Part shown: one piece after another, positions 1 to 46,303 of the stretch
How positions within the stretch are numbered: position 1 is the first letter of the stretch
Layout: every line of letters starts with the position of its first letter
Source of the DNA: Escherichia coli
GTDB lineage: Bacteria > Pseudomonadota > Gammaproteobacteria > Enterobacterales > Enterobacteriaceae
Length of the DNA stretch: 64,000 nucleotides
NCBI RefSeq assembly: GCF_017348835.2
Contig: NZ_CP071375.1
Reading direction: 5' to 3' (one strand)
Made by a program: the position numbers and the translations under genes
The notes under the pieces: model-generated
The model's database searches: none
Told to the model about the DNA's origin: nothing
What the model saw: only the letters and a program-made list of their open reading frames with translations

Positions 1-1107
1 AGAGAGTTTATAATTTTCTAGTCGTGCAGTATAGTTACCATTAAAATTGATTTCATGATTTCCAGCCAGAACGATGACATTTTTATTAATACAGCTATCT
101 TTATTACCCTCCATATTTCGCATAGAATTTAGCAAAGTAAGGATATATTTATCACCAAAAATAGTACTAAATCTATCGCCTGTATGATCCCCAAGGAAGA
201 TACAAGGGGTTATCGCATCGTCCTTTAAAAAAACATGTTGATGCAACTCATTCAATATCATGTCTCTCGTATTTAATAAATTGTAGAGCAATTTATTATT
301 TTTATGTATGTATGCAGATGAAGCCATGTCTTCGTGTTTTAATAATTCACATAATAAACTCCAACCCTTTTCCCTGATGCCTATATGCCCTGAAACGAGC
401 AATGCATAAAGTACAGCGCCTACTCTTCCATCTGTATCGCCAAAATAAGCCGTGTTGGCATTTTGTGGGTTAATCACACCACACTGTTTATAAAAGTCTA
501 TTTTAGAAAACACAGATTTAACATAGCTATCAAACTTATCCTTAGGAAACGTCTCTTTAGAGACATCCCAACGCCAGTCAGCTTTAAAATTACCGCTAAG
601 AAGAGTAAAGAAATTTTCAGGTATGATAGAAAGCCCATTAACTTTATAAATTATGTCTGATTTATAAATTATGTCTGATTTATCTCCGGAGAAATTAATA
701 AAATAATAACCATCCTTACACTCAATCTTAACTGTAATGGGAGACGATAATTTTATCACATGGTTATTGTCTGGTATAATTGTAAAGATAAACGTGTTAG
801 TAGTATTATCGGCGAAACTATTATATTCTTGAATATCTATAGATGGCTCACTATTGTAAAACCATATTTTCTCCATCTGAAGACTATGTTCATTTACCCT
901 CCAGTGACCATGTTGCAGGAAATAGATGATATTCAGGCCTAAATCGTTATCTATTTGCGAAAAGTCATTCAGCATATTAACTTCAACTGTGTTTGATCGA
1001 TATTTTTTATCAACCTTGCCATGGTGTTGATGACTGTTAACTTTATCTGAATGCTTATCTTGATGGCTTGAAGAGATGTGCTTAAATATATTTTGAAATA
1101 CTTTCAT
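1..1107 (-). CDS. AT-rich hypothetical protein, 3' end beyond window start (yhiL-like position; possible degenerate metallophosphoesterase motifs)
   Basis: Hand translation of the reverse complement from ATG at 1107 (MKVFQNIFKHISSSHQDKH...) stays open to position 1 in one frame; absent from the ORF track presumably because no stop lies in the window. Upstream of and divergent from yhiM. Contains LGDHTGDR and AGNHE motifs near the visible end. Confidence 0.55.
   Translation of the reverse strand, partial: MKVFQNIFKHISSSHQDKHSDKVNSHQHHGKVDKKYRSNTVEVNMLNDFSQIDNDLGLNIIYFLQHGHWRVNEHSLQMEKIWFYNSEPSIDIQEYNSFADNTTNTFIFTIIPDNNHVIKLSSPITVKIECKDGYYFINFSGDKSDIIYKSDIIYKVNGLSIIPENFFTLLSGNFKADWRWDVSKETFPKDKFDSYVKSVFSKIDFYKQCGVINPQNANTAYFGDTDGRVGAVLYALLVSGHIGIREKGWSLLCELLKHEDMASSAYIHKNNKLLYNLLNTRDMILNELHQHVFLKDDAITPCIFLGDHTGDRFSTIFGDKYILTLLNSMRNMEGNKDSCINKNVIVLAGNHEINFNGNYTARLENYKLS
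643..678. repeat. perfect 18-bp tandem duplication (tttataaattatgtctga x2) inside the yhiL-like ORF, in frame (SDIIYK x2)
   Basis: Read directly: two identical adjacent 18-mers at 643-660 and 661-678; length is a multiple of 3 and in register with the minus-strand frame from 1107. Confidence 0.85.
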
Positions 1108-5850: not shown

Positions 5851-5957
5851 TTTGTTCATGCCGGATGCGGCGTGAACGCCTTATCCGGCCTACAAAAACA
5901 TGCAAATTCAATAGATTGCAGAGATTATGTAGGCCTGATAAGCGTAGCGCATCAGGC
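5851..5957. repeat. REP/BIME palindromic units between pitA and uspB
   Basis: gccggatgcggcgtgaacgccttatccggcctac and gtaggcctgataagcgtagcgcatcaggc, typical E. coli REP sequences. Confidence 0.7.
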
Positions 5958-14677: not shown

Positions 14678-15773
14678 TGTGTAAGTTCACAGAGATATTG
14701 CAATTGCCTCCGGATAAGTAAGGGGAGATTGCACTATGCAAATGCAGCATCTGATGGTTGGCTATCCTAAGTACTACCAAACGGCCGATTATGCGTTGAG
14801 GCTTTCAGTGATGGCTGATATAGCAACAATGAGAATGAAGGCTCTGCACTTCTGGGATAAACACGGTATTTCTGCAGCTTCTGAAGCCTTTGGCGTGTCC
14901 TGCCGCACGCTTTACTGGTGGCGTCAGTTACTGAACAAGGAAGGACCTGAGGGGCTAATCCCGCACAGTAAGGCACCTCTGGTGCGACGAAAAAAACACT
15001 GGCATCCCGATGTGCTGAAAGAGATTCGACGCCTCAGGACAGAGCTGCCGAACCTCGGTAAAGAGCAGATTTTTGTTCGCCTGAAGCCCTGGTGCGAACA
15101 GCGCTATCTGGCCTGTCCGAGTGTTTCCACCATCGGCAGAATGATCGCTGCCGCACATGATAAAATGCGGATGATACCTGTGCGTCTGGGATCGCGGGGG
15201 AAGGCACTGCTTGTCAAAAAGCGGTCTGCCAAACCCCGCAGGCCAAAGCACTACCGCCCGGTAAAGACAGGTGAGCTCATTGGGATGGACGCCATTGAGC
15301 TCAGAATGGGCGAACTGCGTCGCTATGTCATCACCATGATCGACGAATGCAGCAATTACGCGCTGGCGCTGGCTGTGCCGTCACTCAACAGTGATATCGT
15401 CAATCACTTCTTCAGCCGCGCAGCCCGGTTGTTCCCGGTCGGTATCAGCCAGATAATCACAGATAACGGAAAAGAGTTCCTGGGAAACTTCGACAAAACG
15501 CTGCAGGAAGCCGCTATCAAACACCTCTGGACCTATCCCTACACGCCAAAAATGAACGCTATCTGTGAACGTTTTAACCGGACGTTAAGAGAGCAGTTTA
15601 TTGAATTTAATGAGATTTTACTCTTTGAAGATCTGGCGCTATTTAACCAGAAGCTGGCGGAATATCTGGTGCTGTATAACAGCAAAAGACCCCACAAGGC
15701 GCTCGCACTAATGACGCCCGTGGAATATATTTTAAAAGAGAATAAAAATTGCAATATGTGGTGGACCCATACA
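14678..15773 (+). mobile_element. insertion sequence, single-ORF DDE (rve) transposase, IS481-family-like, about 1.1 kb
   Basis: Imperfect ~28-bp terminal inverted repeats (left tgtgtaagttcacagagatattgcaatt; right reverse complement tgtatgggtccaccacatattgcaatt) flanked by a 5-bp direct repeat tgtcc (14673-14677 and 15774-15778). Boundaries are uncertain by a few bp. Confidence 0.6.
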
Positions 15774-15818
15774 TGTCCTTGCAATAGTTTCAGTATGGTA
15801 TTAGCATTGATGCGTTAG
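14736..15818 (+). CDS. DDE-type transposase (integrase core domain; N-terminal HTH)
   Basis: 360-aa ORF with HTH (GVSCRTLYWWRQ) and catalytic residues consistent with D (GMDAIE), D (ITDNGKEF) and E (ICERFNRTL) about 36 aa later; the ORF reads 45 nt past the inferred right end of the element. Confidence 0.7.
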   Translation: MQMQHLMVGYPKYYQTADYALRLSVMADIATMRMKALHFWDKHGISAASEAFGVSCRTLYWWRQLLNKEGPEGLIPHSKAPLVRRKKHWHPDVLKEIRRLRTELPNLGKEQIFVRLKPWCEQRYLACPSVSTIGRMIAAAHDKMRMIPVRLGSRGKALLVKKRSAKPRRPKHYRPVKTGELIGMDAIELRMGELRRYVITMIDECSNYALALAVPSLNSDIVNHFFSRAARLFPVGISQIITDNGKEFLGNFDKTLQEAAIKHLWTYPYTPKMNAICERFNRTLREQFIEFNEILLFEDLALFNQKLAEYLVLYNSKRPHKALALMTPVEYILKENKNCNMWWTHTCPCNSFSMVLALMR

Positions 15819-15895
15819 ATGATGGCATTCTCACTCCAGCCAGAGCCACCAACTCTGGGCTGCAAAGTAAAAAACCGACGCAAAGTCGGTTTTTT
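15812..15895 (+). ncRNA. agrA: agrA-like small RNA (repeat copy with intrinsic terminator)
   Basis: Shares the gttagat...ctcactccagccagagccaccaactc...aaaaaccgacgcaaagtcggttttttt core with the downstream copy; candidate -35 ttgcaa (15779-15784) and -10 tagcat (15802-15807) with 17-bp spacer. Confidence 0.6.
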
Positions 15896-16042
15896 TACAT
15901 CCGGATTCGGACAAGGCTTAATATGACGATGACCCAGTGAAAGTATATAAATCGTCACTGCGATATATACCGAAGTGCCCCCTCCGCCAGCTGAAGAAAT
16001 CGCTAATTCTTGCAATGTTAGCCACTGGCTAATAGTATTGAG

Positions 16043-16127
16043 CTGTTAGATAAGAGCTCTCTCACTCCAGCCAGAGCCACCAACTCAGGGCTGGAAAGTA
16101 AAAAACCGACGCAAAGTCGGTTTTTTT
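16043..16127 (+). ncRNA. agrB: agrB-like small RNA (antisense regulator of dinQ)
   Basis: Second tandem copy; -35 ttgcaa (16010-16015), 17-bp spacer, -10 tagtat (16033-16038); about 33 nt (gttagataagagctctctcactccagccagagc) complementary to the dinQ leader copy at about 14510-14542; ends in hairpin + T7. Confidence 0.65.
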
Positions 16128-16161
16128 ACGTCCTGATTCAGACCTCCTTTCAAATGAATAG

Positions 16162-16292: not shown

Positions 16293-16304
16293 TGAGATAC
16301 TGAT

Positions 16305-16730
16305 ATGAGCAACATTACCATTTATCACAACCCAGCCTGCGGCACATCGCGTAATACGCTGGAGATGATCCGCAACAGCGGTACAGAACCGACCATTATC
16401 CATTATCTGGAAACACCACCAACGCGCGATGAACTGGTAAAACTCATTGCCGATATGGGGATTACCGTACGCGCGCTGCTGCGTAAAAACGTCGAGCCGT
16501 ATGAGGAACTGGGCCTTGCGGAAGATAAATTTACTGACGAGCGGTTAATCGACTTTATGCTTCAGCACCCGATTCTGATTAACCGTCCGATTGTGGTGAC
16601 GCCGCTGGGAACTCGCCTATGCCGCCCCTCGGAAGTGGTGCTGGAAATTCTGCCAGATGCGCAAAAAGGCGCGTTCTCCAAGGAAGATGGCGAGAAAGTG
16701 GTTGATGAAGCGGGTAAGCGGTTGAAATAA
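16305..16730 (+). CDS. arsC: arsenate reductase (glutaredoxin-coupled ArsC)
   Basis: 141-aa ORF MSNITIYHNPACGTSRNTLEMIRNSG... with catalytic Cys12 context (HNPACGTSRN). Confidence 0.95.
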   Translation: MSNITIYHNPACGTSRNTLEMIRNSGTEPTIIHYLETPPTRDELVKLIADMGITVRALLRKNVEPYEELGLAEDKFTDERLIDFMLQHPILINRPIVVTPLGTRLCRPSEVVLEILPDAQKGAFSKEDGEKVVDEAGKRLK

Positions 16731-16778
16731 AGCGGCTATATCCCCCCCACAGGTTGTTAGAAAAGTGCGCTTTATTTA

Positions 16779-18472: not shown

Positions 18473-18826
18473 AGAGGCCACTTCCTAATGAAAAAGATAT
18501 ATATTATGGGGTGGAAATAGAAATACCATCTGGCAAAAGAATTCGCTTATCAAATCATTATCAGAATATAATACCATAATATTGATTATTAGCACTTTAT
18601 AATTATTGAATAAAAATATATTTTATGTAATTTTAAAACAAAGGATTATATTATGGGGCGATGGATACTCATGTCACGCCCCAAAATCAATGGAATTGAA
18701 CTAAACAGAAGGGATATAAACATCAGACAGGTTTACGTTACTATCAGGCATATCGCCTCAGAATCAGATGAAAACTATAAAGAAATATCTATTATGGTTT
18801 TAATATTTGTTGATAAGGATAGTAAC

Positions 18827-19393
18827 ATGAACATGACAAAAGGTGCACTCATCCTCAGCCTTTCATTTTTGCTTGCCGCATGTAGTTCAATTCCGCAAAA
18901 TATCAAAGGCAATAACCAACCTGATATTCAAAAAAGTTTTGTTGCTGTTCATAACCAGCCGGGGTTATATGTTGGTCAACAAGCGCGCTTTGGCGGGAAG
19001 GTTATCAACGTTATCAATGGCAAAACGGATACGTTGTTAGAAATCGCTGTATTACCGTTGGATAGCTATGCGAAACCTGATATTGAAGCCAACTATCAGG
19101 GCCGACTGCTCGCCAGACAAAGCGGCTTCCTTGATCCAGTGAACTATCGTAATCACTTTGTTACCATCCTCGGTACCATTCAGGGTGAACAACCCGGCTT
19201 TATCAATAAAGTCCCGTATAACTTCCTGGAAGTGAATATGCAGGGCATCCAGGTGTGGCATTTGAGAGAAGTGGTTAATACCACCTATAACCTGTGGGAT
19301 TACGGCTATGGTGCATTCTGGCCGGAACCGGGCTGGGGTGCGCCTTACTACACCAATGCGGTGAGTCAGGTAACACCTGAGCTGGTCAAATAA
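18827..19393 (+). CDS. slp: starvation-inducible outer-membrane lipoprotein Slp
   Basis: ORF 18653..19393 trimmed to in-frame ATG at 18827 giving MNMTKGALILSLSFLLAACSS (lipobox LAAC), 188 aa. Confidence 0.85.
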   Translation: MNMTKGALILSLSFLLAACSSIPQNIKGNNQPDIQKSFVAVHNQPGLYVGQQARFGGKVINVINGKTDTLLEIAVLPLDSYAKPDIEANYQGRLLARQSGFLDPVNYRNHFVTILGTIQGEQPGFINKVPYNFLEVNMQGIQVWHLREVVNTTYNLWDYGYGAFWPEPGWGAPYYTNAVSQVTPELVK

Positions 19394-19548
19394 CACCACC
19401 GAAAGATGCAGATGCTTTCTCAGCATCTGCATCGTGCATTACATCAAATTAATACACAGCAAGCTAACTATTATTACTATAAGCCCTGTCCTGTTAATTA
19501 CCTTTGGCAAACTGATTATAAAGTTAATGTCCGCACCAGGAGTCGGTT

Positions 19549-20079
19549 ATGTTTCTTATAATTACCAGGGATACGATGTTCTTCACCGCGATGAAAAACA
19601 TTCTGAGTAAAGGTAATGTCGTTCATATACAGAACGAAGAAGAGATCGACGTAATGTTGCATCAGAATGCCTTCGTCATTATTGATACATTAATGAATAA
19701 TGTATTTCATTCTAATTTTCTCACTCAAATTGAACGATTAAAACCTGTCCATGTCATTATTTTCTCCCCCTTTAATATTAAACGCTGCCTGGGGAAAGTG
19801 CCGGTGACCTTTGTTCCGCGGACTATCACTATCATTGATTTTGTCGCACTCATCAATGGCAGTTACTGCTCTGTGCCTGAAGCGAATGTGTCACTTTCGC
19901 GCAAGCAACATCAGGTTCTGAGCTGCATTGCGAATCAAATGACAACGGAAGATATTCTGGAGAAACTGAAAATATCGCTAAAAACGTTCTACTGCCATAA
20001 ACACAATATCATGATGATCCTCAATCTTAAGCGGATCAATGAGCTGGTACGCCATCAGCATATTGATTATCTGGTATGA
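19549..20079 (+). CDS. dctR: LuxR-family transcriptional regulator DctR (YhiF)
   Basis: 176-aa ORF with C-terminal LuxR-type HTH; synteny slp-dctR. Confidence 0.85.
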   Translation: MFLIITRDTMFFTAMKNILSKGNVVHIQNEEEIDVMLHQNAFVIIDTLMNNVFHSNFLTQIERLKPVHVIIFSPFNIKRCLGKVPVTFVPRTITIIDFVALINGSYCSVPEANVSLSRKQHQVLSCIANQMTTEDILEKLKISLKTFYCHKHNIMMILNLKRINELVRHQHIDYLV

Positions 20080-20139
20080 ACGATTGATCAATATAAAGAG
20101 GCCCAGCAATAAATAGCCAGACCTCCCGTTAATTATACG

Positions 20140-30297: not shown

Positions 30298-30630
30298 TTA
30301 CATATCTTTCTTAATTTTGTCCCATTCGCCTTTAACTTTATCTTTAAAGTTGGCTTGTTTATCCTGAGTACAAGCCTGAACGATAGCTGGGGTTACGGTT
30401 GCAATACCCTGAACATCTAAAACCGCATCTTCTGGTTTATCTTTGTTGTTCAGCGCTTCAGCAAAACCAACTGCAGTTGGCTGGAAGGATTCGTCCACAG
30501 CCAGGAAATCTTCACAGGTCCAGGAGTTGACCGGTTTTTTGTTATCAGCTGCTTTTTGCGCATCCGCTGCATTGCTCACAACTGGCAGAAGAAGCAGACC
30601 ACCAAGAATAACGCCTAATACTTTTTTCAT
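30298..30630 (-). CDS. hdeA: periplasmic acid-stress chaperone HdeA
   Basis: 110-aa ORF MKKVLGVILGGLLLLPVVSNA... Confidence 0.95.
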   Translation of the reverse strand: MKKVLGVILGGLLLLPVVSNAADAQKAADNKKPVNSWTCEDFLAVDESFQPTAVGFAEALNNKDKPEDAVLDVQGIATVTPAIVQACTQDKQANFKDKVKGEWDKIKKDM

Positions 30631-30788
30631 CGTAATATCCTCAACTATAAAGTGAAAGAGCCGTCACGAATCAATTTCGACACTGAGGTTATAACCTGGT
30701 TTTCTGTATATGTCATGTTGATGGAAAATATCAAAATCAGATATTTTTATTTCAATACAATGAGTTACAGATGCATCAGATACTGCAA

Positions 30789-30807
30789 TTAGGAAATTTT
30801 TATTAAA
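30789..30807. promoter_or_regulatory. gad-box-like sequence in the hdeA/hdeD divergent promoter region
   Basis: ttaggaaatttttattaaa resembles the GadE-binding consensus TTAGGATTTTGTTATTTAAA. Confidence 0.3.
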
Positions 30808-30884
30808 TCGACTGCATTCTTAGACGCGTTTTTGGCATAGATTGATAGCAGGGGATTTTCTTCTTAATTTTATAGGGTGGTTCT

Positions 30885-31457
30885 ATGTTATATATAGATA
30901 AGGCAACAATTTTGAAGTTTGATCTGGAGATGCTGAAAAAGCATCGCAGAGCAATCCAGTTTATTGCCGTGCTGCTGTTTATCGTCGGGTTGCTGTGTAT
31001 CAGTTTCCCGTTCGTCTCTGGCGATATTTTAAGCACAGTAGTGGGTGCATTATTAATCTGCTCGGGTATTGCGCTTATTGTCGGGTTATTCAGCAACCGC
31101 AGTCATAATTTCTGGCCGGTATTATCTGGTTTCCTCGTCGCAGTCGCCTATTTATTGATCGGCTATTTCTTCATCCGCGCACCGGAGCTGGGCATTTTTG
31201 CCATTGCGGCATTTATTGCCGGTTTGTTCTGTGTTGCAGGGGTTATTCGCCTGATGAGTTGGTATCGTCAGCGTTCAATGAAAGGCAGCTGGCTACAGCT
31301 CGTTATTGGTGTGCTGGATATCGTCATTGCCTGGATATTCCTTGGTGCAACGCCGATGGTATCTGTAACGCTGGTTTCCACACTGGTGGGAATTGAACTG
31401 ATATTTAGCGCCGCCAGCCTGTTCAGCTTCGCCAGTTTGTTCGTTAAGCAGCAATAA
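30885..31457 (+). CDS. hdeD: acid-resistance membrane protein HdeD
   Basis: 190-aa membrane ORF. Confidence 0.9.
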   Translation: MLYIDKATILKFDLEMLKKHRRAIQFIAVLLFIVGLLCISFPFVSGDILSTVVGALLICSGIALIVGLFSNRSHNFWPVLSGFLVAVAYLLIGYFFIRAPELGIFAIAAFIAGLFCVAGVIRLMSWYRQRSMKGSWLQLVIGVLDIVIAWIFLGATPMVSVTLVSTLVGIELIFSAASLFSFASLFVKQQ

Positions 31458-32255
31458 TTATCCCGGTTGTCACCCGGATCATAGTCACTTGATGTGACTA
31501 TGATCCGATTAATACTCTCTCCGCTACGCAGTGTTGTAGATCAATTGCGCACTATCATTGAAATAATTACCTGCTAGTGATTATTTCAACCTACTGAATT
31601 TCATCTAATTTTTTTCACTCCATGGCAAATTAGCCATTTCAAACATTATCATGGCTGATATTTTCCGTAGTCAGGTTTAATGTTTTAAAAGTGCTGTGGG
31701 AAAGTGAACAAAGAGTTCCGTAAGCGTTGATGCTATGGGCGGTTAAATAAGTAATCCGGGTTCATTTTTTTGCAACTGGCGTTGATTACATTGCATAAAT
31801 ATCCGTGTCTCCAGACGCTATATAAAAACCTGAAGACATGAATGCGTTATTTACTCAGGTAATTTCAATGCGTTAAAAGAAAGCTGGCAATCCAATTGCC
31901 AGCTTAAGTCGAAACAAGGAGACTCGATATTTAAATCGGATTACATTTTAACTTTAGTAATATTCTTCAGAGATCACAAACTGGTTATTGATAACTTATT
32001 CTTGGGCAGTAATCCGCAAACGTTAACTTTTTGTTTACTATTTACAATCTGATAACAACCAGGAATATTACTTAGGATCAATATATGGAGTGCGTGATGG
32101 ATAAATCTGAAGTATTGATTAGTGTTAATAGACGTATTAGTTCACGAAGGGCAAAGTTCTTATAGGCGTTTACTATATTGAACAACGATTCGGACAAGGA
32201 TGTAAATAATGAAAAGGATGACATGTTCGAAACGATAACGGCTAAGGAGCAAGTT
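31458..32255 (+). promoter_or_regulatory. long AT-rich gadE upstream regulatory region
   Basis: About 800 bp without a convincing ORF ahead of gadE; consistent with the known multi-promoter gadE control region. Confidence 0.5.
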
Positions 32256-32783
32256 ATGATTTTTCTCATGACGAAAGATTCTTTTCTTTTACAGGGCTTT
32301 TGGCAGTTGAAAGATAATCACGAAATGATAAAAATCAATTCCCTGTCAGAGATCAAAAAAGTAGGCAATAAACCCTTCAAGGTTATCATTGATACCTATC
32401 ACAATCATATCCTTGATGAAGAAGCGATTAAATTTCTGGAGAAATTAGATGCCGAGAGAATTATTGTTTTGGCACCTTATCACATCAGTAAACTAAAAGC
32501 TAAAGCGCCTATTTATTTTGTTAGCCGCAAAGAAAGTATCAAAAATCTTCTTGAGATTACTTATGGTAAACACTTGCCCCATAAGAATTCACAATTATGT
32601 TTTTCACATAATCAGTTCAAAATTATGCAACTGATTCTGAAAAATAAAAATGAAAGCAATATCACGTCGACGCTCAATATTTCGCAACAAACATTAAAGA
32701 TTCAGAAATTCAACATTATGTACAAGCTGAAACTAAGACGTATGAGCGACATCGTCACCCTGGGTATCACATCTTATTTTTAG
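32256..32783 (+). CDS. gadE: acid-resistance transcriptional activator GadE (LuxR family)
   Basis: Trimmed to ATG at 32256 with aaggag RBS (MIFLMTKDSFLLQGFWQLKDNHEM...), 175 aa. Confidence 0.9.
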   Translation: MIFLMTKDSFLLQGFWQLKDNHEMIKINSLSEIKKVGNKPFKVIIDTYHNHILDEEAIKFLEKLDAERIIVLAPYHISKLKAKAPIYFVSRKESIKNLLEITYGKHLPHKNSQLCFSHNQFKIMQLILKNKNESNITSTLNISQQTLKIQKFNIMYKLKLRRMSDIVTLGITSYF

Positions 32784-33121
32784 TCAGGACATAAGCAACT
32801 GAAATTGATGGCTGGCATGACGAGGGATGCAGATGCTGATTTCATTACCCCCGGTGATTACTAAAGGAGAGGCTAAAACGACTTTATTCCCCTGGTATGT
32901 GTATCCACCAGTAGAACCCTTCGTTGCCCGAATGCTGGCAGGAACTGTTGGCAGAACGGCAACATTTTTTTTGTCGTTGACCTCACCATGTCGATCACTA
33001 TGCCTGTATCCCACCTTACTGGCTGACAACCCCACTATGCCGCTGGTCTGTAAATCCCTCATATCTCTCCTCGCGCGCAATTTAAAGAACCGTTATTTCT
33101 CAAGAATTTTCAGGGACTAAA

Positions 33122-34279
33122 ATGAACAGAAGAAGAAAGCTGTTAATACCGTTGTTATTCTGCGGCGCGATGCTCACCGCCTGCGATGACAAATCGGCGG
33201 AAAACGCCGCCGCCATGACGCCTGAGGTCGGTGTCGTCACACTCTCCCCTGGCTCGGTCAATGTGTTGAGCGAATTGCCCGGTAGAACCGTTCCTTATGA
33301 AGTTGCCGAGATACGTCCCCAGGTGGGCGGTATTATCATTAAACGCAACTTTATCGAAGGCGATAAAGTGAACCAGGGCGATTCGCTGTATCAGATTGAT
33401 CCTGCACCTTTACAGGCCGAGCTAAACTCCGCCAAAGGCTCGCTGGCGAAAGCACTCTCTACCGCCAGCAATGCCCGCATCACCTTTAACCGCCAGGCAT
33501 CGTTGCTGAAGACCAACTACGTTAGCCGTCAGGATTACGACACCGCGCGCACCCAGTTGAATGAAGCAGAAGCCAATGTCACCGTCGCCAAAGCGGCTGT
33601 TGAACAGGCGACGATCAATCTGCAATACGCGAATGTCACCTCGCCGATTACGGGCGTCAGCGGGAAATCGTCGGTGACCGTCGGCGCACTCGTTACCGCT
33701 AATCAGGCAGATTCGCTGGTTACCATACAACGTCTGGACCCGATTTATGTCGATCTCACGCAGTCGGTGCAAGATTTCTTACGCATGAAAGAAGAGGTCG
33801 CCAGTGGGCAAATCAAACAGGTTCAGGGCAGTACGCCAGTACAGCTCAATCTGGAAAATGGTAAACGTTACAGCCAGACCGGCACGCTGAAATTCTCCGA
33901 CCCGACGGTTGATGAAACCACGGGCTCCGTGACGTTACGGGCGATTTTCCCCAACCCAAATGGTGACTTGCTGCCTGGCATGTATGTCACGGCATTAGTG
34001 GATGAAGGTAGCCGCCAGAATGTATTACTGGTGCCGCAGGAAGGCGTCACCCACAACGCCCAGGGTAAAGCAACGGCGCTCATTCTGGATAAAGACGATG
34101 TCGTGCAGCTACGCGAAATTGAAGCCAGCAAAGCCATCGGCGACCAGTGGGTCGTCACCTCTGGCTTGCAGGCTGGCGATCGGGTGATCGTTTCCGGTTT
34201 GCAACGCATTCGTCCGGGTATCAAAGCACTAGCAATTTCCTCCAGCCAGGAAAACGCCAGCACCGAATCGAAACAATAA
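33122..34279 (+). CDS. mdtE: RND efflux membrane-fusion protein MdtE
   Basis: 385-aa lipoprotein (LTAC lipobox); precedes the RND pump gene. Confidence 0.9.
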   Translation: MNRRRKLLIPLLFCGAMLTACDDKSAENAAAMTPEVGVVTLSPGSVNVLSELPGRTVPYEVAEIRPQVGGIIIKRNFIEGDKVNQGDSLYQIDPAPLQAELNSAKGSLAKALSTASNARITFNRQASLLKTNYVSRQDYDTARTQLNEAEANVTVAKAAVEQATINLQYANVTSPITGVSGKSSVTVGALVTANQADSLVTIQRLDPIYVDLTQSVQDFLRMKEEVASGQIKQVQGSTPVQLNLENGKRYSQTGTLKFSDPTVDETTGSVTLRAIFPNPNGDLLPGMYVTALVDEGSRQNVLLVPQEGVTHNAQGKATALILDKDDVVQLREIEASKAIGDQWVVTSGLQAGDRVIVSGLQRIRPGIKALAISSSQENASTESKQ

Positions 34280-34303
34280 CGTTGCAGGCTTAAGGGGACT
34301 TTC

Positions 34304-37300
34304 ATGGCTAACTATTTTATTGATCGCCCGGTTTTTGCCTGGGTACTTGCCATTATTATGATGCTTGCAGGTGGTCTGGCGATCATGAACTTACCGGTTG
34401 CGCAGTATCCGCAGATTGCGCCACCGACCATTACCGTCAGCGCTACCTATCCGGGTGCCGATGCGCAAACGGTAGAAGACTCGGTCACTCAGGTGATTGA
34501 GCAAAATATGAATGGGCTTGATGGCCTGATGTACATGTCTTCAACCAGTGATGCGGCGGGTAATGCCTCTATCACTCTGACCTTCGAGACTGGGACATCT
34601 CCTGATATCGCACAGGTTCAGGTGCAAAATAAACTGCAACTCGCTATGCCTTCATTACCTGAAGCAGTGCAGCAGCAGGGGATTAGCGTCGATAAATCGA
34701 GCAGTAATATCCTGATGGTAGCGGCGTTTATTTCTGATAACGGCAGCCTAAACCAGTACGATATCGCGGACTATGTAGCGTCTAATATCAAAGACCCGCT
34801 AAGCCGTACCGCGGGCGTTGGTAGCGTACAGCTCTTTGGTTCCGAGTACGCCATGCGTATCTGGCTGGACCCGCAAAAACTCAATAAATATAACCTTGTA
34901 CCTTCCGATGTTATTTCCCAGATTAAGGTGCAAAACAACCAGATTTCCGGTGGTCAACTGGGTGGCATGCCACAGGCGGCAGACCAGCAGCTAAACGCCT
35001 CGATCATTGTGCAGACGCGTCTGCAAACGCCGGAAGAATTTGGCAAAATCCTGTTGAAAGTTCAGCAAGATGGTTCGCAAGTGCTGCTGCGTGATGTCGC
35101 CCGCGTCGAACTTGGGGCGGAAGATTATTCCACCGTGGCGCGCTATAACGGCAAACCTGCTGCCGGGATCGCCATCAAACTGGCTGCCGGAGCAAACGCC
35201 CTGGATACCTCGCGGGCAGTCAAAGAGGAACTGAACCGCTTATCAGCCTATTTCCCGGCAAGTCTGAAGACGGTTTATCCTTACGACACCACGCCGTTTA
35301 TCGAAATTTCTATTCAGGAAGTTTTCAAAACACTGGTTGAGGCTATCATCCTCGTCTTCCTGGTCATGTATCTGTTTTTGCAGAATTTCCGTGCCACAAT
35401 CATCCCGACGATTGCCGTACCGGTGGTTATTCTCGGGACGTTTGCGATCTTGTCGGCGGTCGGTTTCACCATCAACACGTTAACTATGTTCGGGATGGTG
35501 CTGGCGATAGGGTTACTGGTGGATGACGCCATCGTAGTGGTGGAGAACGTCGAGCGTGTCATTGCGGAAGATAAGCTACCGCCGAAGGAAGCGACGCATA
35601 AATCGATGGGGCAGATCCAACGTGCGCTGGTCGGTATTGCCGTTGTTCTTTCCGCAGTGTTTATGCCGATGGCCTTTATGAGCGGTGCAACCGGGGAGAT
35701 CTACCGCCAGTTCTCCATCACGCTGATCTCCTCCATGCTGCTTTCAGTATTTGTGGCAATGAGCCTGACCCCTGCCCTGTGCGCCACCATTCTGAAAGCC
35801 GCGCCGGAAGGCGGTCACAAACCTAACGCCCTGTTCGCACGCTTCAACACGCTGTTTGAAAAATCAACTCAGCACTATACCGATAGCACCCGCTCGCTGT
35901 TGCGTTGTACCGGTCGCTACATGGTGGTCTACCTGCTGATTTGCGCCGGGATGGCGGTGCTGTTCCTGCGCACGCCGACCTCTTTCTTACCAGAAGAGGA
36001 TCAGGGGGTATTTATGACCACCGCGCAGTTACCTTCCGGTGCCACCATGGTTAACACCACGAAAGTGCTGCAACAGGTGACGGATTATTATCTTACAAAA
36101 GAGAAAGATAATGTTCAGTCGGTGTTTACCGTTGGCGGCTTTGGCTTCAGCGGCCAGGGGCAAAACAACGGTCTGGCGTTTATCAGTCTCAAGCCGTGGT
36201 CTGAACGTGTCGGTGAGGAAAACTCGGTTACCGCGATCATTCAGCGGGCAATGATTGCGCTAAGCAGTATCAATAAAGCCGTCGTCTTCCCGTTCAACTT
36301 ACCCGCGGTGGCTGAACTGGGTACCGCGTCAGGTTTTGATATGGAACTGCTGGACAACGGTAACCTGGGGCACGAAAAACTAACCCAGGCACGAAACGAG
36401 CTGTTATCACTAGCAGCGCAATCACCGAATCAGGTCACCGGGGTACGCCCGAACGGCCTGGAAGATACGCCGATGTTCAAAGTGAACGTCAACGCCGCGA
36501 AAGCTGAGGCAATGGGTGTGGCGCTGTCTGATATCAACCAGACAATTTCCACCGCCTTCGGCAGCAGCTACGTGAACGACTTCCTCAACCAGGGGCGGGT
36601 GAAAAAAGTGTATGTCCAGGCAGGCACGCCGTTCCGTATGTTGCCGGATAACATCAATCAATGGTATGTACGCAACGCCTCTGGCACGATGGCACCGCTT
36701 TCTGCCTACTCGTCTACCGAATGGACCTATGGTTCACCGCGACTGGAACGCTACAACGGCATCCCGTCAATGGAGATTTTAGGTGAAGCGGCGGCCGGGA
36801 AAAGTACCGGTGACGCAATGAAATTTATGGCAGACCTGGTCGCTAAACTTCCGGCAGGCGTCGGCTACTCATGGACCGGACTGTCGTATCAGGAAGCGTT
36901 ATCCTCAAATCAGGCTCCTGCGCTGTATGCGATTTCACTGGTCGTGGTGTTCCTCGCCCTCGCCGCACTTTATGAGAGCTGGTCAATTCCATTCTCGGTG
37001 ATGTTGGTTGTTCCGTTAGGCGTCGTTGGCGCATTACTGGCCACCGATCTGCGCGGCTTAAGTAATGACGTCTACTTCCAGGTTGGTTTGCTGACCACCA
37101 TCGGGCTTTCCGCCAAAAACGCCATCCTGATTGTCGAATTTGCCGTTGAGATGATGCAGAAAGAAGGGAAAACGCCGATAGAGGCAATCATCGAAGCGGC
37201 GCGGATGCGTTTACGCCCAATCCTGATGACCTCTCTGGCCTTTATTCTCGGCGTGCTGCCGCTGGTTATCAGTCATGGTGCCGGTTCTGGCGCGCAAAAC

Positions 37301-37417
37301 GCGGTAGGTACCGGCGTGATGGGCGGGATGTTTGCCGCAACAGTGCTGGCAATTTACTTTGTTCCGGTCTTTTTCGTTGTAGTGGAACATCTCTTTACCC
37401 GCTTTAAAAAAGCGTAA
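34304..37417 (+). CDS. mdtF: RND multidrug efflux transporter MdtF
   Basis: 1037-aa 12-TM RND ORF ([21 protein letters not shown]...). Confidence 0.95.
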
Positions 37418-37779
37418 CGTGTAAATGAGAGTAAGGTTGAACGTGAAGGTTCAGCCTTACTCTTTCCTGCTAACCATTCACCACTCAACAACCAGCTAAC
37501 CGTCAGGAATACCAGGCTTAGTACACAGCACTGAAAGTAGAAACCACTCCAGCCATTCGTCATCAATTTGAACAACACAATACTGACCCACATTCCCGTA
37601 ATCGTATGAATTGTCAGCTTAATAATCCCAAACATGCCGAGTCTTTTCCTCCTGAAAATACCTATACCGCCTGGCAAACTGCGAAAGAGAACTAGCCGGT
37701 AGCCCGGCAGAAATCATCAGGGAAGAGTTTCACATGAAGCAGGTGTGAGATCCTGACCAATATTCAAATGCAAAATATG

Positions 37780-38508
37780 TCAGGAAAAGGTACCTGGCGA
37801 ATGTTGCGCAAACTGATGTGGCGTTACACCATAATATTGTCGAAATGTGTTTATAAAGTACGACGTACTGCTATAGCCACATTTTTCTGCAATAGTATGC
37901 AGAGGAATTTGACGTAACTCGAGTAATCGTCTGGCCATCGACATCCTGGAAGCGAGTAATATTTTACTGAAACAGGTATTTTCATCCTGCAACTTTTTTT
38001 TGATTAGACTCTCGCTGGTATACATTCTTTCCGCAATATCGCGCAGATACCAACGTTTGGCGATATCAAAGCTAATAAGGCGTTCAACTTTTCCTGAAAC
38101 AGTACTGATACTATTGAAAAGTAAGGGGATCAGTTCTTTCTTATGAGAAAACATCGATAAACAGGAAAGATAGAGCATTTTGCTCAGTATCGGCGAATTT
38201 ACCCCGGAGTCATTGAAACTATCAAAAATCGCCGTCACCAGCGGCATGGGGGGTGACTGGTTAATTAACAGACGGTCTTTGCTATGTAACCCTAAATTGC
38301 GTGGTAGCTGACGAATATTTTGTAAGTAATGGCAAACTGTCAGCTCATCGATATCCAGCCGTCGCGTATCCGGTGAACAAAACGCAAAATCGTCTGCCAA
38401 ATTTTTATCCAGCAGCAGGATACTCTCGTTATGCAGCGATATTTTTTGCTGTTCATGATAAATATCGAATGAACGACGAATGAGGATCACCGAGCAGACA
38501 TGAGTCAT
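37780..38508 (-). CDS. gadW: AraC-family regulator GadW
   Basis: 242-aa ORF with C-terminal AraC HTH. Confidence 0.9.
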   Translation of the reverse strand: MTHVCSVILIRRSFDIYHEQQKISLHNESILLLDKNLADDFAFCSPDTRRLDIDELTVCHYLQNIRQLPRNLGLHSKDRLLINQSPPMPLVTAIFDSFNDSGVNSPILSKMLYLSCLSMFSHKKELIPLLFNSISTVSGKVERLISFDIAKRWYLRDIAERMYTSESLIKKKLQDENTCFSKILLASRMSMARRLLELRQIPLHTIAEKCGYSSTSYFINTFRQYYGVTPHQFAQHSPGTFS

Positions 38509-38753
38509 GATTATCCCTTATATTTCATACTGCGATTATTTCAATTTCAGTATACTAATGAAATGATGCCAGACTGTTTCTTAGCGCAAAAACTGCCAGA
38601 TTTGGTAGGACCAAAATTTATCCACAAAGTAGTTTTGCATAACAGTTAATTGATAATAAGTAAATGCAACACGAATATATTTTCGCACAGCGTATAGCTT
38701 ATGTTTATAAAAAAATGGCTGATCTTATTTCCAGTAAAAGTTATATTTAACTT

Positions 38754-38859
38754 ACTGAGAGCACAAAGTTTCCCGTGCCAACAGGGAGTGTTATAACGGT
38801 TTATTAGTCTGGAGACGGCAGACTATCCTCTTCCCGGTCCCCTATGCCGGGTTTTTTTT
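38754..38859 (+). ncRNA. gadY: GadY small RNA (overlaps gadX 3' UTR, opposite strand)
   Basis: actgagagcacaaagtttcccgtgccaacagggagtg... ending in cccggtcccctatgccggg + T8 matches recalled gadY; 5' end approximate. Confidence 0.6.
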
Positions 38860-38875
38860 ATGTCTGAGTAAAATT

Positions 38876-39700
38876 CTATAATCTTATTCCTTCCGCAGAA
38901 CAGTCAGTGCCGTAAAAATTCCCTTGCGCAACAATACTTGCCGCCGAGTCACGGTTCGACAATCTCTGCGCCGATCGCTCCTGATACTCTGTGGGCGTCA
39001 TCCCATAATAATTTCGAAAGACGTAAATGAAATACGACACGCTGTGATATCCACAGGATACTGCAACTCGCTTAATTGAAAAACCATGTATAACAATAAG
39101 TTGCAAAGCACGTTGCATTCTACACTCAGTAAGCAACTGTGAATATGATGTCTCTTCTTCGCGCAATTTTTTCTTTAACAGACTTGGACTCATCAACAGC
39201 TCGCTGGCGATTCGGGCTAGTGTCCACTCATGGGCGATATTATTATTGATAACCGTACAAACTCGTGTTCGCATGTTCGGTTGTAAAACGTTCAGAAGCA
39301 GCGGTATAAAGTGCTCATCCTCAAGAAAAACAGATAACAACGCAAAGATTAATGCTCTTTTACGTAGCATTTCTGCATAGCGAAGATTCTTATTCTGCGA
39401 TAGTTGCGCAACTTCCTGAAAAACAGGAATATCTCTGCTACAGTGATGAACGAGTAATGAAGAAACTTTTTTATGTGCATGAAGATTTAATGCCTCCTCC
39501 TTGAGCATCGGGAGAAATAATGAAAGTGTGTCCCTTGACACAAATACAAAATTTTCAACACACTTATCTACTCGAATTTGGCTTGCATCCGCAAAAACCA
39601 AGTCACCGCCATTAAAATAGCGATATTCACCATTAACCATGGTGAGAATATATTTATGTCTTGCGTACGCAATTAGACAATTCCCATGTAGTGATTGCAT
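38876..39700 (-). CDS. gadX: AraC-family regulator GadX
   Basis: 274-aa ORF downstream of gadA on the same strand. Confidence 0.9.
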   Translation of the reverse strand: MQSLHGNCLIAYARHKYILTMVNGEYRYFNGGDLVFADASQIRVDKCVENFVFVSRDTLSLFLPMLKEEALNLHAHKKVSSLLVHHCSRDIPVFQEVAQLSQNKNLRYAEMLRKRALIFALLSVFLEDEHFIPLLLNVLQPNMRTRVCTVINNNIAHEWTLARIASELLMSPSLLKKKLREEETSYSQLLTECRMQRALQLIVIHGFSIKRVAVSCGYHSVSYFIYVFRNYYGMTPTEYQERSAQRLSNRDSAASIVAQGNFYGTDCSAEGIRL

Positions 39701-40069
39701 AGTTGGCTTAATATTACATAAACATATTACTGTTTATTAATGTAGCACGCCGCCCTCTTAAGTCAAATTGATTGATAAATAAATTTAAACGAAGCGGGAG
39801 AACAGGATGATAATGTGTGATGTTCTACGGGCAGGATGACTGGATTTATAATACAAATACGTGTTTAAGAACGCAGGGAAATTAATAGTAAGCAAATAAT
39901 CCCTTTTCGTGACATTAAAGGCAATCGCTACATTTAATAAACATTCATATAACATATATCTTATCAACACGATGAATAGACAGCCAATATATTATTGCGA
40001 TTAATAAGCAACCGAATGCCCAGCTGTTTTTTTAAAGGCTGGGCATTCGGTTTTTACAACGTTATGTTA

Positions 40070-41470
40070 TCAGGTGTGTTTAAAGCTGTTCTGCTGGGCA
40101 ATACCCTGCAGTTTCGGGTGATCGCTGAGATATTTCAGGGAGGCTTTGTAGTCTTCCAGCAACAGTTCAGCAAAGTCCATTTCGAAGCCGCGACGACACA
40201 TAATGCGCATCACCACGATGTCGGTGGCTTCACCGCCGAGAGTGAAGGCCGGAACCTGCCAGCCGCGCAGACGCAGACGTTCAGAGAGGTCGTACAGGGT
40301 GTATCCCGGATCTTCACCATCTTTCAGTTTGAAGCAAACCGCCGGGATGCCTTCGTCCGGGCGACCCGTACAGATGAACTCATACGGCCCCAGTTTGGCG
40401 ATTTCATCCGCCAGATAGGCAGCGACCTGGTAGGAAGCATTCTGTACTTTGGTATAGCCTTCACGACCAAGGCGCAGGAATTCATAGTACTGTGCAATCA
40501 CCTGACCTGCCGGGCGGGAGAAGTTGATGGCGAAAGTACCAATCTGACCCCCCAGGTAGTCAACGTTGAACACCAGTTCCTGCGGCAGCGCTTCTTCGTC
40601 ACGCCAGATAACCCAGCCGCAGCCCAGAGGAGCCAGACCGAATTTATGGCCTGAAGCACTGATCGATTTCACACGCGGCAGGCGGAAGTCCCAGACGATA
40701 TCCGGGGCGACGAACGGTGCCAGAAAGCCACCGCTGGCGGCGTCGATGTGCATGTCGATGTCGATACCGGTGTCGGCCTGGAATTTATCCAGCGCATCGT
40801 GCAGCGGTTGCGGGAACTCATAGTTACCGGTGTAGGTCACGCCGAAAGTCGGCACCACGCCGATGGTGTTTTCGTCGCAGGCTTCAATCATGCGTTTCGG
40901 GTCCATAAACAACTGACCGGGGCGCATAGGGATCTCACGCAGCTCCACATCCCAGTAGCGGGCGAATTTATGCCAGCAGATTTGTACCGGACCGCACACC
41001 AGGTTTGGTTTATCCGTTGGTTTGCCTGCAGCTTCCATACGCTTGCGCCAACGCCATTTCATCGCCATCCCGCCGAGCATACAGGCCTCGGAAGAACCAA
41101 TGGTGTTGGTGCCAACGGCCTGACCATTTTTCGGCGCAGGCGCATGCCACAGATCGGCAACCATGTTTACGCAACGCAGGTCGATGGCTGCGGATTGCGG
41201 ATATTCTTCTTTGTCGATCCAGTTTTTATTGATCGACAAATCCATCAATTTATGGACGTTTTCGTCGTCCCAGGTCTGGCAGAAAGTGGCCAGGTTCTGA
41301 CGAGCGTTGCCATCAAGATATAATTCATCATTGATAATCTGGAATGCGACATCATCGCGCATTTCGTGCAGCGGAAATCGTTTTGACTCCGCGATAGTAG
41401 AAATGGCCTTTGCGCCAAAACGTGAATCGAGTAGTTCTGAGCGGAAATCCGTTAACAGCTTCTGGTCCAT
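40070..41470 (-). CDS. gadA: glutamate decarboxylase alpha (PLP-dependent)
   Basis: Trimmed to ATG at 41470 ([23 protein letters not shown]...), 466 aa; adjacent to gadX, so gadA rather than gadB. Confidence 0.9.
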
Positions 41471-41549
41471 TTCGAACTCCTTAAATTTATTTGAAGGCAA
41501 TAAAAAAGTAGGATTTATCCGCAATGGAAGCAAGGCATTACAGGCTTAA

Positions 41550-41569
41550 TTTAAATAACAAAATCCTAA
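41550..41569 (-). promoter_or_regulatory. gad box (GadE-binding site) upstream of gadA
   Basis: Minus-strand sequence TTAGGATTTTGTTATTTAAA is a perfect match to the recalled consensus, about 80 nt upstream of gadA. Confidence 0.7.
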
Positions 41570-41640
41570 GCAGAAAAACTACTTTTTATAATATAAACAT
41601 TTAACATGATAATATTAAAAACAGACTTTATTATCGTAAT

Positions 41641-41670
41641 AAAAATCGCCCAAACATTCCTGTTCGGGCG
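41641..41670 (-). terminator. rho-independent terminator after yhjA
   Basis: On the minus strand cgcccgaaca...tgtttgggcg followed by atttttatt. Confidence 0.55.
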
Positions 41671-41680
41671 ATCAAATTAA

Positions 41681-43078
41681 TTATTGTTTATCCTGCATAT
41701 ACGGCGTGTACACCCCGTTCAGACTGTGCAGGAAAGCTACGATATCATCCACATCCTCCTGCGGCAGCTCTTTGCCTACCTGATAGCGCAACATCAGTTT
41801 CACCGCCCCGTCCAGCGTCGGCACGTCACCGCGATGGAAGTACGGTGCCGTTAAAGCAACGTTACGTAAACCGGGTACTTTCTGACGCAATTTATCACGC
41901 TCTTCTTTAGTCACATTCATACGACCAATATCCGCCGCCGTAATTTCCCCAAAGTTAAAGTCTTTTTTCAGCCCCAACGGTTCAAAGGAACGTCCGCCGA
42001 GAATAATTCCACCATGACAAGTTGCACATTTATTATCTTTAAATAATTGATAGCCTTTTTTCTGTTGCGCCGTCAGCGCATTCTCATCTCCACGCAACCA
42101 TTTATCAAATGGGGAATCCGGCGTAATTAATGTTTTCTCAAATTCAGCAATGGCATCAGTAATATTTTCGCCACTGAAACCTTGCGGATAGACGTCGAGG
42201 AACTGCGCTTTAAGCTGCGGATCTTTTTCCAGCTTAGCAATAATTTCGTCCCAGGATTTTGACGCCATTTCAATCGGGTTCAACGGCGGTCCACCAGCCT
42301 GATCCTGCAATGTTGCCGCACGACCATCCCAGAACTGCTCAACGTTAAATACTGAATTAAATACCGTCGGCGCGTTAATCGGCCCAACTGCGCCACCAAC
42401 ACCAATCGATGTTTTTCTGCCATCGACGCCCCCCGCATTCAACGCATGGCAATGAGCGCATGAAATGGTGTTATCTGCCGATAAACGGGGATCGTGATAC
42501 AGCGCAAAGCCCAACGCCACTTTTTGCGCATCGGTAGGCAGTTTTTGCGGGATGGGCTGCACCGGTTCATTGCGATGCTCCGGAGCAGTATCATTACTGG
42601 CGTAATATTCTGCGCGCTGTTTTGCAATCCAGGCCAGTATTTCCGCCCGCTCTTCATCACTCACCTTACCCGCCCAGTGAAGCGCGGTATAACGCGTTGG
42701 CGGCATAGTTTCATACTGCATCACCCATTCAATCTTATTCAGATCGCTTTGCGAAACGGGTTTATCAGCCAGCAGAGCAGCACGCACGGCCTCGAGGTTA
42801 AAAGATTTATATCCAAGCTTAATGTCGTAATCCATCAACTGTTTCGCGCCAGGAATATAATAATAGGCGGGTAATTCTGCCGAAGGCGTGTGGCAATAGT
42901 CGCATCCTTTTTCGCGGAGAAAGCCTAAAACCTTATTATTTTCACTGACAGCAGATGCCTGAACATCGGCCTGTTTACTGCGTTTATTATCGTGGTACCA
43001 CACATAACCAGATAACCCTAAATAGCAAATCGCGACGCCAGCCAGGCCGATCGCGGTAATACGTGAGACCATTTTCAT
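41681..43078 (-). CDS. yhjA: cytochrome c peroxidase YhjA (CcpA family)
   Basis: 465-aa ORF with several CxxCH haem-binding motifs (CDYCH, CAHCH, CATCH). Confidence 0.9.
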   Translation of the reverse strand: MKMVSRITAIGLAGVAICYLGLSGYVWYHDNKRSKQADVQASAVSENNKVLGFLREKGCDYCHTPSAELPAYYYIPGAKQLMDYDIKLGYKSFNLEAVRAALLADKPVSQSDLNKIEWVMQYETMPPTRYTALHWAGKVSDEERAEILAWIAKQRAEYYASNDTAPEHRNEPVQPIPQKLPTDAQKVALGFALYHDPRLSADNTISCAHCHALNAGGVDGRKTSIGVGGAVGPINAPTVFNSVFNVEQFWDGRAATLQDQAGGPPLNPIEMASKSWDEIIAKLEKDPQLKAQFLDVYPQGFSGENITDAIAEFEKTLITPDSPFDKWLRGDENALTAQQKKGYQLFKDNKCATCHGGIILGGRSFEPLGLKKDFNFGEITAADIGRMNVTKEERDKLRQKVPGLRNVALTAPYFHRGDVPTLDGAVKLMLRYQVGKELPQEDVDDIVAFLHSLNGVYTPYMQDKQ

Positions 43079-43451
43079 TATTCTTCCCTCACGGTGGTGA
43101 GTTATTGTGACCCAGAAAATTTTCCAGAATGCTGCAAACGTCTCTGCGAGACAAAGCCATCATAAAAAACAGGGAGATACACTTTTTGATAGGAATCAAT
43201 CAATTACATGAATATAAACTATCAATAAGATAGCCTGTGCCTATTACCCAGATCAGGAATGGCATATCATGATTGCGGCGAGAGCAGGATTGAATGTTCT
43301 GAAAATGAAAAACAACACGAAATCTGTATTTTTATAAATTCCATTGATATTAGTGCGTTATATTTTTTGACAGGTTAATAAACGTGATCCACCGCACGCT
43401 TTGTCGCCCACCAGGCGGAGCGAATGACTACCCTTAAAGAAAAGCCGATAA

Positions 43452-45131
<1,680 letters not shown>

Positions 45132-45181
45132 TATTTTTACAGCCAGCCGCTAACTTCCTGCTGGCTGTAAAATTATCCTCT

Positions 45182-45784
45182 TCAGGAGGAGATATTTAAC
45201 ATCATTGCCGCCTGGGTGCGATTTTTCACTTCCAGACGGCGATACAGGGATTCCAGATGCGCTTTTACCGTTCCGGTACTGATATTCAGCGCTCTGCCGA
45301 TCTCCTTATTTGATTCGCCCGCCGCTAACATGGTTAAAATCTCCCGCTGGCGGGCGCTTAACGATTTGAGATCTTTAATGTCCTTTTCCGGCGTCGTCCG
45401 CCAGTCTCCAGGCAGAAACATCATCCCCATCGCCGCACTATTTACCGCCAACGCAAATGTCTCGACGGTTGAATCACGAGGCACAATGGCCAGCACATTA
45501 AAATGGATAACTTCCTGTAACCACCGTTTATTGCAATCCGTCGCCGTAATTAACACCTTAACCTCAGGAAATTGCACCACGGTTTTTTGCAGCAACCAGT
45601 AGCAAAACTCACCATCCTGATCGCCATCGAGCATAACTAAGGCTTCAGGGTAACTTTCCAGCTTTTGCCATAACTCGTCTGCCTGACTGGCCCCCTGAAT
45701 ACTCACTCCTGGAATACGCTGCTGTAAACTGATTTTCATTCCATGAATAAATATTGACTGCCTGTCAAACATGACTATTTGCAT
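45182..45784 (-). CDS. yhjB: LuxR-family response-regulator-like protein YhjB
   Basis: 200-aa ORF with C-terminal LuxR HTH. Confidence 0.85.
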   Translation of the reverse strand: MQIVMFDRQSIFIHGMKISLQQRIPGVSIQGASQADELWQKLESYPEALVMLDGDQDGEFCYWLLQKTVVQFPEVKVLITATDCNKRWLQEVIHFNVLAIVPRDSTVETFALAVNSAAMGMMFLPGDWRTTPEKDIKDLKSLSARQREILTMLAAGESNKEIGRALNISTGTVKAHLESLYRRLEVKNRTQAAMMLNISS

Positions 45785-46303
45785 AACTGAATCTCCACCT
45801 GAATACGTTAAAAAGACTTAAGTAGTGGAAGGGTATTACCTGCGAGAAAAAATAAGAATTCGCCATTTGGCGGTGGCCATTCTACAGAGATGACGCGTAG
45901 AAAATAGTTACCGATATAAATAGTTACAGCTAAACGCCTGAAATTACATGTCGAGGGCACTATTTAAAATAATTTTGAGGATTTCCTTATATTGATGGTT
46001 AGTACGCATGCAATTAAAAATGAAATTCCGCGACCACAAGCCAAAATAACAAACGGCAATGAGACAAAAATAAGCACAAATAGCCAATACGTCCTCTATT
46101 CACTTTAAAGGGAATCGCTGAAAAATACGCTCTGTTTAAGGGGATTCACCTTTCTCAGAAAGCTATTCCGCCCTTTTCCTGCTGAGAAATCGCCACATTC
46201 GTCATGACAACATTGTGAAACCCGGCATTAGATGTTAGAAAAAACAATAAACAATGCGATATGCGCGTTACTGTTTCGCTGTGAACAACAATCGGTCAAA
46301 GAA

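Follow-up and report, generated by a model that had tools for sequence, protein, structure and literature searches.

An RcsB/GadE-type GAD box, very probably functional, precedes gadA in an Escherichia coli acid fitness island that carries the chu insertion

Introduction

When the acid fitness island of an Escherichia coli strain differs in structure from that of K-12, does the gadA promoter still carry the elements through which GadE acts, and what does an exact match to the known box tell us about the quality of the site? The GAD box of the K-12 gadA promoter was reportedly described by Castanie-Cornet and Foster in 2001 and by Ma et al. in 2003. In a sequence-only reading of the 64-kb stretch of E. 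coli DNA analysed here (referred to as the window), a perfect copy of this box was placed upstream of gadA, a match in the hdeA/hdeD region was judged weaker, and the box was considered consistent with intact GadE control of gadA despite a rearrangement of the island. We followed up these claims by pattern search, by a weight-matrix scan, and by comparison with K-12 and with 5426 complete E. coli genomes.

Materials and Methods

Version 2 K-12 coordinates were converted to window coordinates by subtracting 3,624,133. The weight matrix was built from the 16 K-12 GadE ChIP-exo peaks in Supplementary Table 1 of Seo et al. (PMC4918353). The peak coordinates were converted to NC_000913.3, and the conversion was supported by the presence of the box within the gadA and gadBC peaks. 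The matrix is home-made and non-curated; it was obtained de novo by expectation-maximisation, assuming one site per sequence on both strands, from 14-16 peaks. The IUPAC motif TTARGAWWWWAAATA printed by Seo et al. (PMC4918353) was tried as a scan matrix and rejected, as it had mismatches at five of 15 positions to the gadA and hdeD sites and matched dozens of A+T-rich non-sites. Its last five positions disagree with TTAGGAWWWWWTTAT, the motif derived from the peaks of the same paper; the logo was possibly transcribed in a different register.

The transcription start of gadA was set from the published primer F/gadA-176 (GATCGCCCGAACAGCAA, PMC3050690), the 5' end of which corresponds to window position 41673. 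A generic sigma-70 scan missed the gadA arrangement TTGCTT-17-TACTTT and gave only A+T-rich decoys; the published spacing was used instead. Gene order was drawn from the open reading frames together with the PE164 and K-12 annotations.

Results

The minus strand of 41300..41900 reads ...ttctgcTTAGGATTTTGTTATTTAAAttaagcc... around the 20-mer at 41569..41550, and the exact minus-strand read of 41569..41550 is TTAGGATTTTGTTATTTAAA, the string given as the known site in PMC4918353. The perfect 20-bp box that had been claimed at 41550-41569 of the minus strand was therefore found, with a match at 20 of 20 positions. A pattern search allowing up to three mismatches on both strands of the 64-kb window returned this single match, and no match to TTAGGATTTTGTTATTTAAA appeared in 100 dinucleotide-preserving shuffles. 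The 3'-terminal base of the box, 41550, was 79 nt away from the gadA ATG (41470), as against the previous estimate of about 80 nt.

The gene downstream is gadA (40070..41470, minus strand), an intact gene of 1401 bases encoding glutamate decarboxylase A (466 aa), with a protein identical to K-12 GadA and with gadX and ccp as its flanking genes. A gadB identity for this gene was ruled out by the synteny with ccp and gadX and by the flank sequences. The transcription start (+1) falls at 41497 (minus strand), giving a 27-nt leader, and differs by no more than 1 nt from what the ChIP-exo distance to the transcription start (-64) implies. Relative to this +1, the GAD box TTAGGATTTTGTTATTTAAA (41550..41569, minus strand) extends from -72 to -53, with its centre at -62.5. 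It is oriented as gadA and is separated by exactly 16 nt from the -35 hexamer TTGCTT (41528..41533, minus strand), whose position follows from the published spacing. This geometry agrees with the literature, where the box is 16 bp from the -35 hexamer and has its centre near -63. The -10 hexamer TACTTT (41505..41510, minus strand) would be set off from the -35 hexamer by a 17-nt spacer and would precede 41497 by 7 nt, in accordance with the published layout (PMC2887963).

The other known elements of the promoter are also present. An RcsB box, GGATAAATCCTA (about 41509..41520, minus strand), lies upstream of the -10 hexamer and overlaps it. Its sequence is identical to that of K-12, where it has been described as a low-affinity site for the RcsB homodimer that serves repression (PMC2887963). 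Upstream of the GAD box, the binding region of the AraC-type activator GadX (41594..41635, minus strand) was located by the K-12 GadX ChIP-exo peaks P39 and P40 (version 2 coordinates 3665727-3665768). Within this region, the K-12-identical sequence AAGTCTGTTTTTAATATTAT (41628..41609) resembles the published GadX/W motif AtGtcTGATtTttatattat (PMC4918353). An intrinsic-terminator-like hairpin after ccp (yhjA), with a T run behind its 13-bp stem (41644..41673, minus strand), bounds the gadA regulatory region on its upstream side. As for the proteins that act on the box, gadE, which encodes a LuxR-type activator of 175 aa identical to K-12 GadE, is found at 32256..32783 (plus strand), and rcsB lies outside the 64-kb window.

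The exact match to the consensus requires some caution. The consensus is the block common to the gadA and gadB promoters (PMC2887963). Since these two promoters define it, the match of gadA is circular by construction. The claim of an exact match thus holds for the string but is uninformative: what the match shows is that the promoter is unmutated, not that the site is an unusually good one.

A matrix trained on other promoters does not have this drawback. The de novo motif was TTAGGAWWWWWTTAT, both with and without the gadA and gadB peaks in the training set. Its most informative columns were G5, A6, T12, T13, and A14, with position 5 (G) at the top (1.84 bits). The motif is fitted by an informative 15-nt core of the GAD box, TTAGGATTTTGTTAT (41555..41569, minus strand), in which both G residues of TTAGGA are kept. 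When the window was scanned with the matrix from 14 peaks (gadA and gadB omitted), this core scored 19.57 bits and ranked second among 127,972 window positions. For a score of at least 19.5 the exact p was 1.3e-7 per position, or 0.016 expected per window. Far from scoring poorly in the weight-matrix scan that the sequence-only reading had proposed, the site is therefore a high-scoring one. The gadA box kept the second rank when the flanks were set to 10 or 30 nt, when the pseudocount was raised, and when training omitted all acid-island peaks; with a 12-nt matrix it fell to rank 5. A matrix of width 20 trained without gadA and gadB extended leftwards, not rightwards, and placed the site fifth, which indicates that the other sites do not share the five right-hand bases of the classical 20-bp box: its TTAAA end is not conserved among other GadE sites.

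The first rank was taken by the hdeD site (30789..30803, plus strand; 22.33 bits). A second site in the hdeA-hdeD spacer (30736..30750, plus strand; 16.1 bits) ranked third, the gadE-promoter site, equivalent to peak P11 (32072..32086, plus strand; 15.75 bits), fourth, and the yhiM-promoter site, orthologous to peak P8 (1309..1323, plus strand; 15.68 bits), fifth. The sequence TAAGGATATATTTAT at 138..152 (plus strand) scored 15.5 bits. It is situated inside a gene for a DUF4049 protein (PE164 annotation), upstream of yhiM, and may be a chance match. In K-12 the gadA box is also occupied in vivo: GadE ChIP-exo peak P12 maps to 41548..41576 of the window, directly over the GAD box, with a weak signal (S/N 1.48; PMC4918353 peaks).

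The hdeD-promoter site TTAGGAAATTTTTAT (30789..30803, plus strand) is thus the top GadE site of the window, at 22.3 bits. In its 20-nt form, TTAGGAAATTTTTATTAAAT (30789..30808, plus strand), it lies in the hdeA-hdeD intergenic region and is identical to the gadA box at 15 of 20 positions. It corresponds to K-12 ChIP-exo peak P10 (S/N 40.96), which maps to 30782..30810. Like the gadA box, it contains the 15-nt TTAGGAWWWWWTTAT with the TTAGGA end promoter-distal, and hdeD is activated by GadE in K-12. It differs in that its matrix score is higher despite the 15/20 identity, its ChIP-exo S/N is about 28-fold greater, and its centre is at -54 rather than -63. A match in the hdeA/hdeD region does exist, as had been noted, but it is not the weaker one, since the scores are 22.3 versus 19.6 bits and the S/N values 40.96 versus 1.48. 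Counting letters against one promoter's own sequence hence misranks the sites: the hdeD site is weaker by letters and stronger by both matrix and in vivo occupancy. The second GadE-type site of this spacer, ATCAGATATTTTTAT (30736..30750, plus strand; 16.1 bits), is 53 nt upstream of the hdeD site, and both point towards hdeD.

The conservation of the box was assessed by alignment with K-12 and by searches of the complete E. coli genomes. Between the ccp stop codon and the gadA ATG (210 bp of intergenic DNA), the window shows two substitutions relative to K-12 MG1655, both outside the box and outside every mapped site. One replaces C by G in the loop of the terminator hairpin that follows ccp. 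The other replaces C by A at 41580 (-83), 11 nt away from the box on its upstream side. Of the 5426 complete genomes, 5396 contained a 36-mer with the GAD box at its centre, and in 5120 of them it was 100% identical. In two gadA promoters examined as examples of the less than 100% matches, the differences lay outside the box only. Some 501 bases around the site found a match in 5413 of the 5426 genomes, annotated there as ccp and gadA. The matches at 100% identity over this region were two pig isolates, PE164 and F2_81, and the same two alone (2 of 5426) matched the 36-mer across the C-to-A change at 41580. This change sits between the GadE and GadX ChIP-exo footprints; because it is outside all mapped footprints, it is probably neutral. 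It is the sole strain-specific feature of the promoter.

Two observations were made on the gadA loci of other strains. In PE164, the closest database genome, the annotation treats gadA (20331..21730 of the PE164 locus) as a pseudogene, 1400 bases long with a frameshift, whereas the gadA gene of the window is intact at 1401 bases; the frameshift could be an assembly error or a real difference. The gadA promoter of E. coli EC26 (NZ_CP196718.1 3723517-3723784) is gadA-like upstream through the GAD box and then gadB-like through the RcsB-box region. Such a chimeric sequence suggests gene conversion between the paralogous gadA and gadB promoters.

When the window, K-12, the two variant strains, and K-12 gadB were aligned, the 20-mer was the sole block upstream of the -35 hexamer common to the gadA and gadB promoters. 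The K-12 gadBC promoter has the same 20-mer in the same orientation, with near-identical -35, RcsB-box, and -10 regions, and its ChIP-exo peak P3 is centred at -62.5. It is distinct in its chromosomal locus, which is outside the window, in the unrelated flanks of the box, and in a 22-bp upstream insertion relative to gadA. The RcsB box of gadB has a C at the left end where that of gadA has a G. Compared with the K-12 gadA promoter (PMC2887963), the window has the same 20 bp, the same distances to the -35 hexamer, the +1, and the ATG, the same flanking genes, the same RcsB box, and the same GadX region. It differs by the two intergenic substitutions and by the chu (O-island 140) insertion 12 kb away.

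The order of genes in the window is yhiM ... slp, dctR, chuS, chuA, chuTWXYUV, yhiD, hdeB, hdeA, hdeD, gadE, mdtE, mdtF, gadW, gadX, gadA, ccp, treF. BLAST of K-12 3652000-3672000 against the window gave two collinear blocks. The first pairs K-12 1232-3215 with window 18098-20080. The second pairs K-12 3251-20001 with window 29140-45890, and runs for 16.75 kb at 99.09% identity without gaps. The sole structural difference from K-12 is an insertion of 9,059 bp (20081..29139) between dctR and yhiD, which contains the chu heme-uptake genes and ends 12.4 kb from the GAD box. The acid fitness island is already known in this O-island 140 form from O157:H7, O145:H28, EAEC 042, and others (PMC10540162, PMC9144400). 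A rearrangement of the island was accordingly not borne out, as the island is collinear with K-12 apart from this insertion; on the same grounds of BLAST collinearity, we rejected the idea that a rearrangement affects the box. The proteins GadE, GadA, HdeA, HdeB, HdeD, and YhiD are identical to those of K-12, while GadX has one substitution and GadW three.

Some further features of the window may be recorded. Rfam matches at gathering score were obtained for the sRNA GadY (38751..38864, plus strand), between gadX and gadW; for ES205 (32901..32972, plus strand), at the GadF position after gadE; for the shuA/chuA 5'-UTR thermoregulator (23197..23228, minus strand), in front of chuA; and for ES036 (5896..5936, plus strand). 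All four are expected for the locus. An open reading frame at 14736..15818 (plus strand) matches a PE164 CDS annotated as 'IS481 family transposase'. It has dinQ on one side and two antisense RNA hits of AgrB type on the other. These hits are at 15815..16129 and 16305..16730, and arsC begins about 175 nt after the second. As this leaves no room for arsR and arsB before arsC, the ars operon appears truncated relative to K-12.

Discussion

The site at 41550..41569 is, with high confidence, the canonical GAD box of the gadA promoter in E. coli, at which a heterodimer of RcsB and GadE activates transcription; its binding and regulation are taken from the identical K-12 sequence. The GAD box of the window is already known, and there is nothing new in it. 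Binding and activation at the identical K-12 sequence have been established by footprinting, gel shift, and in vitro transcription (PMC2887963), as well as by ChIP-exo (PMC4918353). At K-12 gadA, Castanie-Cornet et al. (2010; PMC2887963) found that RcsB and GadE together protect -50..-76 from DNase I. The complex contains both proteins in equal amounts and has an apparent Kd of about 10 nM (PMC2887963). A G-to-C mutation in the box (M1) abolished both binding and GadE-dependent activation in vivo, and a TT-to-CC change in its right part had little effect (PMC2887963). The heterodimer is active irrespective of whether RcsB is phosphorylated (PMC5651002).

By analogy with K-12, GadE, encoded 9 kb away on the same island, and unphosphorylated RcsB would bind as a heterodimer to this activator site, an asymmetric stretch of 20 bp with its centre about 62.5 bp upstream of +1. 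Binding would lead to transcription of gadA, and to gadA-gadX read-through transcription, in stationary phase and in acid. As the site is placed much like that of a class I activator, RNA polymerase would presumably be contacted from upstream of the -35 hexamer. The separate low-affinity RcsB box at -10 would bring about repression on activation of the Rcs system, with the GadX/GadW sites acting further upstream. Although point mutations have not defined the half-sites of the GAD box (PMC2887963), the promoter-distal TTAGGA end is most likely the half-site of RcsB and the proximal TTAT end that of GadE. In the crystal structure of RcsB with DNA, K180 and S184 touch a TTAGGAA half-site at its G, A, and A (PMC5829831). 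The GAD box has TTAGGAT at its left end, and that G and A are the two most informative columns of our matrix. Relative to the gene, the motif points the same way in all five of the activated promoters with the best documentation (gadA, gadBC, hdeD, gadE, and yhiM), which is consistent with a fixed polarity of the heterodimer.

According to an older model, which is also implied by the wording of the sequence-only reading, GadE alone would bind the box as a homodimer and activate gadA. Earlier reports, as cited in PMC2887963 (its refs 8, 21, and 22), described binding of GadE to the GAD box, and Seo et al. (PMC4918353) name the site a 'GadE-binding site'. However, MBP-GadE purified free of RcsB gave no protection and no probe shift, and the earlier binding was attributed to RcsB that had co-purified with GadE (PMC2887963). 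Moreover, an asymmetric motif composed of an RcsB-like TTAGGA and an unrelated TTAT is better fitted by a heterodimer than by a homodimer. We regard the homodimer model as very unlikely. Since RcsB-free GadE neither bound nor protected the box in K-12 (PMC2887963), the earlier conclusion of intact GadE control must be reworded: the GAD box, the cis elements, and the 175-aa GadE are indeed identical to those of K-12, but GadE does not act on the box by itself.

The resemblance of the left half, TTAGGAT, to the RcsB half-site TTAGGAA raises the converse possibility of an ordinary site for the RcsB homodimer or for RcsA-RcsB. The likeness extends to RcsB/RcsAB boxes such as that of flhDC (PMC5829831), where the corresponding TTAGGAA is contacted and, as in the GAD box, the G is critical. 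But these boxes are pseudo-palindromic (TTAGGAA ... TCTTAGA-type), whereas the GAD box has TTAT, needs GadE, and works independently of RcsB phosphorylation. We looked for a second RcsB half-site within the GAD box and found none: the right half is GTTAT, the inverted TCCTAA of the homodimer is missing, and only the left half fits a pseudo-palindrome of two TTAGGA/TAAGA-type half-sites. Without GadE, RcsB protects the separate -10 box only and leaves the GAD box unprotected (PMC2887963). GadX and GadW do regulate gadA, which might suggest that the box is one of their sites, yet the GadX ChIP-exo peaks (41594..41635) are upstream and do not overlap it. Either of these assignments, to RcsB without GadE or to GadX/GadW, is extremely unlikely. 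That the box is a chance match without specific function is hardly conceivable. The region is very A+T-rich, and a background set to the extreme of 80% A+T would give about 1.25 hits of this score in 128,000 positions. Against this stand the exact 20-mer with zero matches in the shuffles, the 36-mer that stays unchanged in 5120 of 5426 genomes, unlike its flanks, the identical 20-mer at an equal distance in the paralogous gadB promoter with its diverged flanks, and the in vivo occupancy in K-12 by ChIP-exo. Taken together, assignment to the RcsB/GadE heterodimer remains the reading that we adopt.

It is also conceivable that the change at -83 alters the interplay of RcsB/GadE with GadX/GadW or H-NS bound upstream, and thereby shifts gadA expression in this lineage, and, separately, that the functional motif is the 15-nt TTAGGAWWWWWTTAT, with the last 5 nt dispensable and the hdeD site as the best genomic match. 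We consider this proposal very improbable.

The strain has kept its cis-regulatory module for glutamate-dependent acid resistance unaltered, comprising the GAD box, the RcsB box, the GadX region, gadE, and gadA, despite the chu insertion in its acid fitness island.
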